Shown here: in pieces, positions 60,479 through 64,000 of the stretch
Layout of the letters: every line of letters begins with the position of its first letter
How positions within the stretch are numbered: the stretch's first letter is position 1
IMG/VR virus record: IMGVR_UViG_3300021255_002052
Coordinates: 32,001-96,000 of that record
Strand: one strand, 5' to 3'
Length of the DNA stretch: 64,000 bases
Origin: a virus
Taxonomy: Duplodnaviria; Caudoviricetes
Program-made: the position numbers and the translations under genes
Notes under the pieces: model-generated
Told to the model about the DNA's origin: nothing
What the model saw: the letters and a program-made list of their open reading frames with translations, nothing else
The model's database searches: none

Positions 60479-60506
60479 TTATTAGTGAAGAAAGGACGGT
60501 GATACC

Positions 60507-60920
60507 GTGAGTTGGAAAATAACTGAGCGAACAGATGGCGACGAAACGTCGTACGTCATAAAGATGTGTCGCGGAGATACGCCGACTTTTCGTATAAACG
60601 TAAAGAAGAATACCGTGGACGGGGTGCTAGACTGGGAACCGACGCAGGGCCTGGACTACGACCTCGTCTTCGCGATTAAGGAGAGGGGCGGAGAATCCCC
60701 TCTCTACTAGATTAAAGCAGACTCCGACTATACGATCTTTCTGCCGGAGGAAGCGACGGGCAATCTCGAGCCCGGGAAGTACCGCTGGGAAGTATCTCTG
60801 AACATTTACGACGAGGGAGAACTCTCCTACCACGATACCTTTATCGAGAACCAGCTTCTAATAATAACCGACGAAGTCTACGGAAGCCGTAACCGGGGAG
60901 GAGGCGATCTCGGTGGCTGA
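60507..60920 (+). CDS. Baseplate upper (BppU-N-like) beta-sandwich protein (137 aa)
   Basis: IKMCRGDT...LVFAIKE...LEPGKYRWEVSL, with one TAG. Confidence 0.55.
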
Positions 60921-62097
60921 TTTTATAGGGACGCTAGAAACGACGCCCGAGCAGATAACCGGTAACCTGTCATCCGACTAGTCGCTGGCCGGTAAGCTCT
61001 CCTCTCTCGGTATCCCTGGCAACGGAATCGCGACGATCGAGAAAACCGCGACCGAGGGGCTCGTAGACACGTATACGATCACGTACGACGACGGCGCGAC
61101 GACCGTCTACCAGATCACGAACGGTAACGGGATCGCGAACGCTAGCTTTAACGAGGATAATACTCTTACGCTCGAATTCTCGGACGGGACCTCTCTCACG
61201 ACCGGAGTCCTGCGCGGCGACGACGGAGAGGAAGTCCTGCTGCGAGCCGAGGATAACGTAGTCAGCTATAAGTACGAGTCGGATCCGGACTGGACAGTGC
61301 TCGTCGATCTGACCGGTTTCGCGGACGAAGCGAGTAACGCCGCCGCTACGGCGACCGAGAAAGCTACCCAGGCCAGCAACTCCGCGACCAGGGCCGAGAC
61401 AGCCGCGAGTACGGTTAATTCCGCTGTTGCGACCGTAACACAGAAGGCGGAGGAGGTCACGAATTCGGCGGAACAGGCCGCGATCTCTCAGAGACGAGCC
61501 GAAGCCGCCGCCGAGGATGGGCGGATCTATAAGAACACCGCCCGGGAATACGCCACCGCTTCTCTAGCCGCACAGGAGAATACGCGGATATATTCGGAGC
61601 GGACTCTTGGCTACGCTAATAACGCCGCCGCGTCTGCCCAGGCTGCGAAAGATTCCGAGACTGCCGCCGCTTCCTCCGCCGATCAGGCGCGGGAATATGC
61701 CGAGAACGTCGACGATCTAGCTGTCCAGGCGATGGAGGATTATCTCGACGAACATCCGGCGGTACAGTCGATCAACGGTAAAACCGGCCACGTTATTCTC
61801 TCCGCCTCCGATGTCGGGGCTCTCCCCTCTTCTACGGCTATCCCCTCGAAGATCTCGGATCTGACGGACGATTCGGGTCATTATACTAAACCGGCAACGG
61901 GTATTCCGGCAAGTGACATGGCGAACGGTGTGATCCCGGCCATTGACAACACGCTGACCGTTATCGGAGCGGCGGCAGACGCAAAGAAAACTGGTGACGA
62001 ATTATATGCGTTAAAGGAAGAATTAACCGAGATCAAGAGGCGTATCGACGATATCGAGGAGAAACACAACGCTGGAGAAGGTGAATCCAATGGATAA
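60913..62097 (+). CDS. Tail fibre-like protein with Ala-rich coiled coil (394 aa)
   Basis: GGAGG RBS, GTG 60913. Motifs GNGIATIEKT...DTYTITY, VQSINGKTGHVILSASDVGA and DNTLTVIGAAADAKKTGD. Confidence 0.7.
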
Positions 62098-62236
62098 AGA
62101 TTTAGCAGAAAAGATATATTGGATATTGATTGAAGAAGGACAGCACAATTTAAATTTCCCACTTGGCAGTATAATCACAAATACACCAGATGAAGTAAGG
62201 GATATTATCCGAAAACACATCAAGGAACTAACTTAA
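62090..62236 (+). CDS. Small hypothetical protein (48 aa)
   Basis: GAAGGTGA RBS, ATG 62090, MDKDLAEKIYWILIEEGQHN..., ends TAA. Confidence 0.55.
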   Translation: MDKDLAEKIYWILIEEGQHNLNFPLGSIITNTPDEVRDIIRKHIKELT

Positions 62237-62260
62237 ATAGATCTTTCAGGAGGCAAGTAT

Positions 62261-62383
62261 ATGGTAGAGCTAATATGCGAATTCTGCTCAGAGCATTGGG
62301 TAGTTTTGTATGGGCTTTTGATGTTTGGTATAGGCGAAATCTACGGATATATCAAAGGCCGAAAAACTATCGCAGGAGCTTAA
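62261..62383 (+). CDS. Small single-TM peptide (40 aa)
   Basis: AGGAGG RBS. MVELICEFCSEHWVVLYGLLMFGIGEIYGYIKGRKTIAGA. Confidence 0.6.
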   Translation: MVELICEFCSEHWVVLYGLLMFGIGEIYGYIKGRKTIAGA

Positions 62384-62397
62384 AGGAGGAAACAATT

Positions 62398-62460
62398 ATG
62401 AAAAAGTATCATGAAGTATCGGCGGCGGTAACTGAAACGAAGCCGGTCGAGGAGGGATAA
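62398..62460 (+). pseudogene. 20-aa mini-ORF, probable internally deleted gene remnant
   Basis: Very strong AAAGGAGG RBS but only MKKYHEVSAAVTETKPVEEG before TAA. Confidence 0.35.
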
Positions 62461-62464
62461 TCTG

Positions 62465-63082
62465 ATGGACGAATTAAGGGTAATATCTAATAACCATGAC
62501 GAAAATGGAAAGTTAGCTGGCGGAAAGGTCGGCGATTAGACCGGGTACGAGTTCGTGATTAAGAAATTCTACGACGGCGACTGGGATCTCTGCCTCCGCT
62601 ACGACGGTCCCCGCGCGGAAGAAGCTCGCGCTCTCGCCAGTCGGATCGGCTGTATTCTCGCGGCCGAGGACAAAGTAGGTTACGACACTAGCAATAAGCT
62701 GGCCCTCTCTAAGGCGCTCAAGAAAGCCGGTTACGACCCGTTCCGGATCACGGACACCGAGGCGACCTGCTCCTCTTCTATCAACGCGACCTGGATCACG
62801 GTCGGCTAGCTCCTCGATATCCCGCAGTTAAAGCTCCTCCGGCCGGGTGTTATGACCGCGCATATGAAGGAAGTATATCAGAACAGCGGCTTCACGATCC
62901 ATAGAGGGAAGCGGTTCCTCTGCGGCGAGAAGAATATTCCCGGCGACGTGATCGTAAACGAGGGCGTCCACACGATTATGGTGGTCGACTTTAAGGACGC
63001 GCGGAAGGCGCGGAACGATAAGTATAATTCCGAGAACCTTCTGAAGAACCTGGGAGGTAACGATGCCGAAAGTATACGCTGA
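62465..63082 (+). CDS. Endolysin-like NlpC/P60-type cell wall peptidase (205 aa; TAG at 62537 and 62807)
   Basis: DENGKLAGGKVGD(Q)TG, VGYD, TCSS (candidate catalytic Cys), GDVIVNEGVHT (candidate catalytic His). Confidence 0.7.
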
Positions 63083-64000
63083 TTACGCTGCCGGGGCCCC
63101 GATCATGCCGGAGGTCCTGGACGCGATGCTCCCCTACTTCGGAGCTAGCTACGGAAATCCTTCCGCCGCCTACGACTTAGGGATAGAAGCCCGTCGAGCC
63201 GTGGAGGACGCGCGGGGGATAATCGCCGAATCGATAGGCGCGAACCCCGACGAGATCGTATTCGTCAGCTCCGGCTGCGAGGCTGATTCTTCGATTATTA
63301 GAGGAGTCCTCTCCCGGAATCCCGGTGGCCGGTTCGTCACGGATACCGTCGAGCACAAGACCGTTCAGGAGGCCTGTGAGTGGCTCTCTGGGCACGGCTG
63401 GCTCGTAGACAGGTTAACTGTCGACCAGTTTGGCAGAACGTCTCCTGCTGCCCTCAGCGAGGCTCTACGCGGCCGTCCCGCTGCTCTCGTCTCGATCATG
63501 TACGGAAACAACGAGGTCGGTACCTTAAGCGACGTCGCGGATCTAGCCAGAATCGCCCACGAGTACTCCGTACTCTTTCACAGTGACTGCGTACAGGCTT
63601 ACCAGAAGATTCCGATCGACGTGAAGGCGCTAGATCTAGACGCCGCCAGTTTCTCGGGACATAAAATCGGCGCTCCGTCCGGAATCGGGTTCCTGTACCT
63701 GCGCGAAGGTATCGAGATAGATCCGCTCATATTCGGCTCCCAGGAGGGATACCGCCGGGGCGGTACCGAAAATGTTGCGTATATCGTTGGCCTAGCCAAA
63801 GCGGTCGAGATCCGCAGCCGGAACCTCGAAGAGCGCGTCGCGAAGACTGCCGAAAACCAGAGACGGTTAATCGACGGTCTACGCGGAATCGGGCGGCTTA
63901 ACGGCCCAGAGCCGGGTCCTGACAGGCTAGCGAACAACGTCTCGTTCTGCTTCGGCGGCGTACAGGGAGAGGAACTGCTCGAGCTCCTGAACCTTAACGG
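63063..64000 (+). CDS. iscS: Cysteine desulfurase, IscS/NifS family (3'-truncated)
   Basis: VYADYAA...YGNPS, EIVFVSSGCEA, VEHKTV, NNEVGT, HSDCVQA, SFSGHK (PLP lysine), RGGTENV. GGGAGGT RBS. Overlaps the endolysin end. Confidence 0.92.
   Translation, partial: MPKVYADYAAGAPIMPEVLDAMLPYFGASYGNPSAAYDLGIEARRAVEDARGIIAESIGANPDEIVFVSSGCEADSSIIRGVLSRNPGGRFVTDTVEHKTVQEACEWLSGHGWLVDRLTVDQFGRTSPAALSEALRGRPAALVSIMYGNNEVGTLSDVADLARIAHEYSVLFHSDCVQAYQKIPIDVKALDLDAASFSGHKIGAPSGIGFLYLREGIEIDPLIFGSQEGYRRGGTENVAYIVGLAKAVEIRSRNLEERVAKTAENQRRLIDGLRGIGRLNGPEPGPDRLANNVSFCFGGVQGEELLELLNLN

Follow-up and report, generated by a model that had tools for sequence, protein, structure and literature searches.

CpG gain and CpA/TpG loss across a mosaic, TAG-recoded phage related to SPbeta, and their probable independence from its change of genetic code

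Background

Genomic signatures are said to be captured by Karlin-type dinucleotide relative abundances, and imported DNA reportedly ameliorates towards the composition of its host, as described by Lawrence and Ochman. Here we analyse a window of 64,000 nucleotides from a tailed phage (bases 32001-96000 of the 109,771-bp linear IMG/VR record IMGVR_UViG_3300021255_002052; coordinates refer to this window unless marked as genome), much of which is rich in CpG and poor in CpA and TpG. The phage resembles DNA adopting a host signature in that its bias is strand-symmetric and extends over coding and non-coding sequence, the phage is temperate, its composition is mosaic and a directional substitution flux is found in its backbone. 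It differs in that no sampled bacterium fits the whole signature, and the searches described below did not identify a host. The CA/TG odds ratio of its strongest modules, 0.45-0.6, lies at or beyond the extreme of the 92 samples of Clostridia genomes used for comparison.

Methyl-CpG decay, the deamination of 5-methylcytosine, shares with the phage skew the three dinucleotides concerned and the transition pathway. It runs in the opposite direction, however, since the phage gains CpG and loses CpA/TpG, whereas its standard-code relatives show classical decay. A preliminary description of the window had called the skew the reverse of such decay, and the observed odds ratios (CG 1.3-1.6, CA/TG 0.45-0.75) bear this out. 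In E. coli, very-short-patch (VSP) repair by Dcm/Vsr enriches CCWGG over CTWGG/CCWAG. Repair of this kind, acting from T:G to C:G, would turn TpG into CpG, and in the skewed phage DNA the respective values are 1.12 and 0.37; CTWGG/CCWAG, however, contain the generally depleted CA/TG or CTAG. Unlike VSP repair, the phage skew is not limited to one motif. Neither PF03852 (Vsr) nor PF00730 was found in the record, which is about 60% complete, or in four relatives, and PF03852 was not found in the CpG-rich bacteria searched.

The phage is also similar to code-15 (TAG->Gln) gut phages (Borges et al., 10.1101/2021.08.26.457843; for the phAss-1 group, PMC10607447), with which it shares in-frame TAG in late genes, a tRNA-CUA, an integrase and early genes free of TAG, and low-GC standard-code sisters. 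The published route to recoding (10.1101/2021.08.26.457843, a preprint in which the word "dinucleotide" does not occur) consists of depletion of TAG stops at low GC followed by gain of a suppressor tRNA. This route fits the AT-rich sisters of our phage; unlike in the published account, its own lineage has since gained GC and CpG.

According to CheckV, about 40% of the genome is missing from the record. The part present encodes a portal, tail proteins, a tyrosine integrase, an endolysin with amidase, glucosaminidase and SPOR domains, and a class-V aminotransferase (IscS-like). Relatives carry the families YonG/YonD/YonB/YomW/YonJ/YonV of the Bacillus prophage SPbeta, as well as DNA polymerase III alpha. 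The phage, temperate as judged by its integrase, is a TAG-recoded siphovirus of the SPbeta-like kind; its relatives are rich in AT and poor in CpG. Its late genes are open only when TAG is read as glutamine, and they end in TAA/TGA. Around the portal, coverage by open reading frames (ORFs) reaches 0.84 in this reading against 0.46 under table 11. A suppressor tRNA with anticodon CUA (cta) was located by ARAGORN at genome 28566-28657, upstream of the window; a tRNA scan of the window itself found none. The in-frame TAG codons number 207, with none in the integrase (genome 98230-99489, beside the endolysin in strains L242 and L249 too) or in the long early genes at 7.8-24.5 kb of the genome.

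Extent and nature of the skew

The preliminary description rested on a hand count of 31 CG, 5 CA and 0 TG in 61021-61200, which proved exact. Mononucleotide shuffles give an expectation of 14.2, 14.4 and 7.9, respectively, and the joint result occurred in none of 20000 shuffles. Over the whole of 60500-64000, CG is found 379 times against 264 expected, CA 121 against 235 and TG 121 against 195, corresponding to z-scores of +10, -10 and -7 relative to composition-matched shuffles.

The skew is a strand-symmetric property of the DNA for which neither amino-acid content nor codon preference accounts. When synonymous codons were shuffled with protein sequence and codon usage kept, the junctions between codon positions 3 and 1 of skewed late genes still exceeded the shuffles 1.39-fold in CG (z 14) and 1.43-fold in TA (z 9), and reached only 0.56 of them in CA (z -13.5) and 0.58 in TG (z -10). 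Recoding matched for amino acids and for GC content at third codon positions (GC3) left the skew in place as well (CG x1.33, CA x0.62, TG x0.69). Minus-strand genes, the integrase and ORF-free DNA are all affected; outside ORFs in genome 1-14 kb, CG amounts to 1.45 and CA/TG to 0.48. Codon junctions, minus-strand genes and DNA without ORFs all show the loss of CA and TG, which, as originally claimed, affects both strands alike. Codon adaptation was considered as the cause and rejected, because the skew is no weaker at codon junctions and outside ORFs.

Of the pyrimidine-purine steps, CpG and TpA are preferred to CpA/TpG. The margin-free ratio (CG*TA)/(CA*TG) is 5.18 at 60500-64000, 4.8 at 52-56 kb, 1.4 in a giant gene and 0.6-0.8 in AT-rich parts. 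TpA enrichment as a separate process was discarded: for the most part it should follow arithmetically from CA/TG removal at fixed base composition, and the polarised flux between CA and TA is even in both directions (35 against 39).

Skewed DNA of the record, 41 kb in total and including window positions 1-4000, 8000-11000, 38000-46000, 52000-56500 and 60000-64000, was also examined for longer words. Depletion of CA covers nearly all 16 NCAN contexts (0.36-0.83), only CCAG/TCAG being spared at 1.14. TGCA occurs at 0.17 of expectation, and neither CTGCAG nor GTGCAC occurs at all, where about 9.5 would be expected. Avoidance of palindromes beyond that of shorter words was not seen, since Markov-corrected tetranucleotides are close to 1 except for TGCA (0.56) and GGCC (0.62). 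In the same DNA, GATC and TCGA are in excess, at 1.98 and 1.77 times expectation, respectively.

Mosaic distribution of the skew

Skewed and unskewed parts alternate along the window. In a sliding profile of symmetrised odds ratios, values per kb are CG 1.28 and CA/TG 0.62-0.78 at 1-2000, 1.19-1.62 and 0.65-0.89 at 38000-46000, 1.4-1.63 and 0.54-0.69 at 52000-56000, and 1.26-1.53 and 0.54-0.71 at 60000-64000. At 47000-52000 and 57000-60000, CG is 0.81-1.08 and CA/TG 0.89-1.17. The map drawn by eye in the preliminary description, with skew at 1-2300, 38400-46600 and 52200-56000 and none in AT-rich fibre modules, agrees with this profile. Modules specific to the lineage show the strongest skew and the conserved SPbeta-like backbone a moderate one, whereas AT-rich modules show none.

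The module at 60500..64000 is GC-rich (GC 0.52-0.59), and its genes show CG of 1.35-1.53 and CA/TG of 0.45-0.58. It comprises an ORF at 60507-60920, a tail-fibre-like ORF at 60913-62097 (tail-fibre matches in PHROG are weak in this region), an ORF with an endolysin-like domain (Pfam ELLD) at 62465-63082 and the class-V aminotransferase or IscS-like gene (Pfam Aminotran_5) at 63063-64196, which extends beyond the window end. Apart from the IscS-like gene, at 39-40% identity, these genes lack homologues in the relatives G588 and G589. Strongly skewed late genes of 337, 170 and 936 aa, with 6, 0 and 12 in-frame TAG, occupy the plus strand at 52285..56658 (CG 1.43-1.56, CA/TG 0.56-0.68; codon-junction values CA 0.55, TG 0.64, CG 1.54); no relatives of them, the 936-aa protein included, were found in the phage collection or in IMG/VR.

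In the conserved backbone, the terminase end, the portal (771-2324; phrog_2739) and a 512-aa head-region protein, all on the plus strand at 1..4301, are moderately skewed (CG 1.28-1.39, CA/TG 0.62-0.78). The tail module at 38423..46600 (plus strand; proteins of 307, 1269 and 356 aa and the start of a 2050-aa protein, matching PHROG tail proteins) is clearly skewed, with junction ratios of x1.37 for CG, x0.72 for CA and x0.66 for TG to codon shuffles. Between head and tail genes lies a giant plus-strand ORF of 7494 aa (15873..38357) with 96 in-frame TAG, which is only weakly skewed (CG 1.12, CA/TG 0.83; junctions CG x1.18, CA x0.89, TG x0.88). Over parts of its length it is 29-63% identical to G588/G589, and it contains zero Cys codons; if it were a tape measure, it would be exceptionally long.

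Two TAG-recoded, plus-strand blocks are AT-rich and unskewed. The fibre-like modules at 47000..52236 consist of the 3' half of the 2050-aa ORF and a 611-aa ORF whose glutamine codons are 5 TAG, 12 CAA and 2 CAG; CG is 0.81-1.08, CA/TG 1.05-1.17 and (CG*TA)/(CA*TG) 0.82, and ratios to codon shuffles are about 1.0 throughout. The block at 57000..60478 carries ORFs of 334, 286 and 286 aa, with CG of 0.95-1.07, CA/TG of 0.89-1.0 and codon-shuffle ratios near 1.

Genes that the phage has in common with G588/G589 (PhoH, RNA polymerase, terminase, portal, head, tail and the giant gene) are moderately skewed, and homologues of the most skewed blocks (genome 1-14, 84.3-88.7 and 92.5-99.7 kb) are absent or weak there. 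Codons ending in CA have been replaced by those ending in CG to different degrees: ACA and ACG are used 121 and 118 times in the giant ORF, against 20 and 89 times in skewed genes, and overall the synonymous NCA:NCG ratio differs about fivefold between backbone and skewed modules. Such a difference within one genome implies unequal exposure times of the modules and points to a gene pool outside the backbone lineage. The tRNAs of the phage read ATA, TTA, CTA and CAA, codons commoner in the backbone than in skewed modules (the CAA share is 0.38 against 0.05), as would be expected if the skewed composition is host-like.

Exchange of modules can be followed at the IscS-like gene. The allele of the record has a GC3 of 0.68, 2 NCA codons and no TAG, and that of strain L249 (7863-8990) a GC3 of 0.38, 20 NCA codons and 2 TAG. 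Their proteins are 67% identical, against 89% for the flanking genes and 89-92% for these strains otherwise. At this locus, one divergent allele has taken the place of the other between related strains. A scan of JGI metagenomes revealed two further strains of the phage with the GC-rich allele.

Direction of substitutions

The region of the terminase end and portal (1..4301) was used to compare a trio of the record, strain L142 (7% apart) and the outgroup L144 (19.5%), which yielded 395 polarised substitutions. CpA->CpG changes occur at 0.095 per site against 0.033-0.057 for other NpA->NpG changes (ratio 2.19, p 3.6e-6), and CpG->CpA is not elevated. In total, T>C outnumbers C>T (177 against 122) and CA->CG outnumbers CG->CA (54 against 37). 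Two trios of standard-code relatives show the opposite, with CpA->CpG at 1.05x and CpG->CpA at 1.9-3.1x other contexts, that is, classical decay. In a trio from a second recoded clade, CpA->CpG is again raised (1.92x, p 0.003). The CpA->CpG flux is ongoing in the lineage. The preliminary description had attributed the skew to a CA-specific modification, mutator or host defence. Of this, the polarised substitutions uphold a lineage-specific process that is still removing CpA; evidence for or against a DNA modification or a CA-directed defence was not found.

Skew and the genetic code

Since both standard glutamine codons contain CA, it had been proposed that TAG, as the one glutamine codon without CA, became advantageous under a pressure against CA, which could so have driven the recoding. 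We consider this very improbable: the recoding is older than the skew and unrelated to it. In a set of 33 late genes or chunks, the share of TAG among glutamine codons does not follow the junction skew (Spearman 0.05, p 0.79), being 28, 23 and 24% in the most, middle and least skewed third. Rising skew is instead accompanied by a shift from CAA to CAG (rho 0.65) and by a higher GC3 (rho -0.72). In the most skewed late genes CAG remains the main glutamine codon (58 CAG, 23 TAG, 1 CAA), while NCA codons are nearly replaced by NCG (20 ACA against 89 ACG, 18 GCA against 111 GCG). Genes without TAG are among the most skewed, namely the early genes of genome 1-14 kb, with CA/TG down to 0.44 in a YonV-like gene, the integrase and the IscS-like gene; the caveat that the latter uses only CAG was right (7 CAG, 0 CAA, 0 TAG). 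Fibre-like modules with many TAG, on the other hand, are unskewed. Were all 207 in-frame TAG codons CAG, they would make up for 21% of the missing CA and leave the shortage of TG as it is.

Relatives place the events in time. In a portal alignment of 80 IMG/VR loci, recoding requires at least three changes on the tree. Standard-code relatives have a GC of 0.32, CpG of 0.65 and CA/TG of 1.15, and recoded ones CpG of 0.77-1.13 and CA/TG of 0.91-1.13. All three independently recoded clades exceed their standard-code sisters in CpG and fall below them in CA/TG, and in the trios described above CpA->CpG is elevated in those from two recoded clades and in neither of the two standard-code ones. These observations would speak for pressure against CA as the driver, yet the contrasts are only three and confounded with habitat, and they do not make a case for an association between recoding and CpG. 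Recoding without CA depletion is seen in clade R1 and part of R2 (CA/TG of 1.09-1.13), and the recoded relatives L040, L044, L070 and L078 lie in this range. The skew deepens towards the phage's own lineage. In its recoded clade, CA/TG is 0.96 and 0.90 for the whole records G589 and G588; around the portal it is 1.08-1.14 in standard-code sisters, 0.91-0.94 in L001/L002, 0.88 in L144 and 0.81 in both L142 and the record. In this clade the recoding thus predates the skew. Finally, standard-code Clostridia (G002, G224, G414 and G411) lie on the same CG/CA axis with the same strength, reaching CG of 1.5-2.0 and CA/TG of 0.59-0.78. Dinucleotide pressure on CAA/CAG is in this way removed as an explanation of stop-codon recoding, in agreement with the low-GC route (10.1101/2021.08.26.457843), which fits the AT-rich sisters.

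Possible origin of the bias

We suggest that a host-associated, context-dependent substitution bias acts on a compositional mosaic, a proposal that in our opinion has about an even chance of being correct. Such a bias would convert CpA/TpG to CpG and raise GC3 in the lineage. The conserved backbone would then be converted only part-way, the host-interaction modules (tail fibre, lysis, integrase and early region) would be near saturation, and the AT-rich modules would represent untouched recent imports. As the simplest source of the gradient, we imagine the replication and repair environment of the present host together with a gene pool long resident there; this host would belong to the standard-code Clostridia and have a signature of similar kind. 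Bacteria on the same CG/CA axis do occur. Several samples from the order of the metagenome-assembled genome (MAG) G002, a Christensenella sp. by title, have CpG of 1.5-1.8 and CA/TG of 0.70-0.78, and contigs C1-C3 of G002 itself (L122, L342 and L343) have 1.77-1.97 and 0.59-0.74. GATC and CATG are scarce on these contigs, with 0.04 and 0.17 of the expected counts. According to PMC2917420, signature distance to the host predicts the host-phage relationship, lytic or temperate.

Several findings weigh against a host as the source. The complete signature was met with in none of the 92 Clostridia samples, delta* being 0.114 at best and tetranucleotide r not exceeding 0.56, and the CpG-rich bacteria differ from the phage in GA/TC, GpC, GATC and CATG. 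A contig of a phage of the same family, binned with the CpG-rich G002, is unskewed along all its 46 kb. On the CG/CA axis, G002, G224 and G414 do match the phage. The host was not found by DNA, protein or portal searches. DNA of the lysis-integrase region gave only chance matches in 201 genomes of the order of G002, and the IscS-like protein was at most 47% identical to proteins of 399 Clostridia genomes. Beyond strains of the phage itself, homologues of integrase and endolysin do not exceed 50-58% identity, those with a name belonging to Lachnospiraceae. Contigs with a 99%-identical integrase had the phage arrangement and no host junction, and the portal search in species genomes returned only two MAG contigs. 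Skew is greatest in a YonV-like gene that belongs to the family core, and none of the closest relatives known for this gene, which are no more than 53% identical, is skewed. A DNA polymerase III alpha of their own is encoded by relatives of the phage, which, together with the incompleteness of the record, makes a phage-borne cause conceivable. Moreover, parsimony polarisation with an outgroup diverged by about 20% is approximate.

A bias intrinsic to the phage would arise from its own replicase, a polymerase III alpha homologue as in its relatives, or from a repair or modification gene in the missing part of the genome, unskewed modules again being recent imports. Polymerase III alpha is encoded by all five relatives examined, the bias is specific to the own lineage and one other recoded clade, standard-code trios being free of it, and the skew of the YonV-like gene is not shared by its known relatives. 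The region adjoining PhoH would also fit, since it is the most CpG-rich and CA/TG-poor part of both recoded relatives G588 and G589. Nevertheless we regard this origin as unlikely. The backbone, which has been longest with the polymerase, is the least converted at synonymous sites, as the ACA and ACG counts above indicate, and bacteria without these phage genes share the CG/CA axis. No Vsr, HhH-GPD glycosylase, C5 or N6/N4 methyltransferase was found in the roughly 60% of the genome at hand, and neither Vsr nor HhH-GPD in the relatives searched, three of five of which have C5 methyltransferases. C5 methyltransferases themselves were rejected as a cause, as they are missing from the record and G588/G589 and present in less skewed relatives. 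Selection offers another route, in which a host defence or base modification targets CA/TG-containing sequence and favours DNA without these steps. The scarcity of TGCA and the absence of CTGCAG and GTGCAC from the skewed DNA could be read in this way, and the most skewed modules include early genes, which presumably enter or act first. Depletion in nearly all NCAN contexts, near-expected corrected palindromes other than TGCA and GGCC, and the lack of modification genes found in the record make it quite improbable, however. AT-rich modules with CA/TG of up to 1.17 also share the same virion DNA and persist in related strains.

A wider possibility, of which we are distinctly doubtful, is a "reverse CpG decay": a mutational or repair bias from CpA/TpG to CpG in uncultured Clostridia and their phages, recurring in independently recoded clades of this phage family, so that CpG gain and code change would be two outcomes of one shift in host or lifestyle. 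Christensenella-like genomes share the signature (CpG observed/expected up to 2.0), and no mechanism was found for them. The phage itself presents an unusually strong CpG-gaining, CpA/TpG-losing signature in progress, with backbone, host-interaction and AT-rich modules caught at three stages. If the host is found, the speed and the mutational route by which a phage takes on a host signature can be tested directly.

Further observations

The PhoH-adjacent region of the relatives (G588:C1:48000-64000 and G589:C1:152000-160000) is the positional equivalent of 1-14 kb of the record; in G588 its CA/TG is 0.67-0.81. Outside the window, genome 100000-109771 (L083:4000-13771) forms an AT-rich block (GC 0.30-0.38, CpG 0.7-1.0, CA/TG 1.1-1.2) of small, mostly minus-strand ORFs almost without family matches. 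It directly adjoins the GC-rich integrase module, and parts of it are 92% identical in strain L249. In L249, the IscS-like gene and the endolysin are separated by an inserted GIY-YIG endonuclease gene. The terminase region of strain L142 contains some 2.6 kb with ORFs for LAGLIDADG-type homing endonucleases (L142:2194-4888), which are absent from the record (genome 31009-31308); a GIY-YIG gene and another LAGLIDADG gene follow further on.

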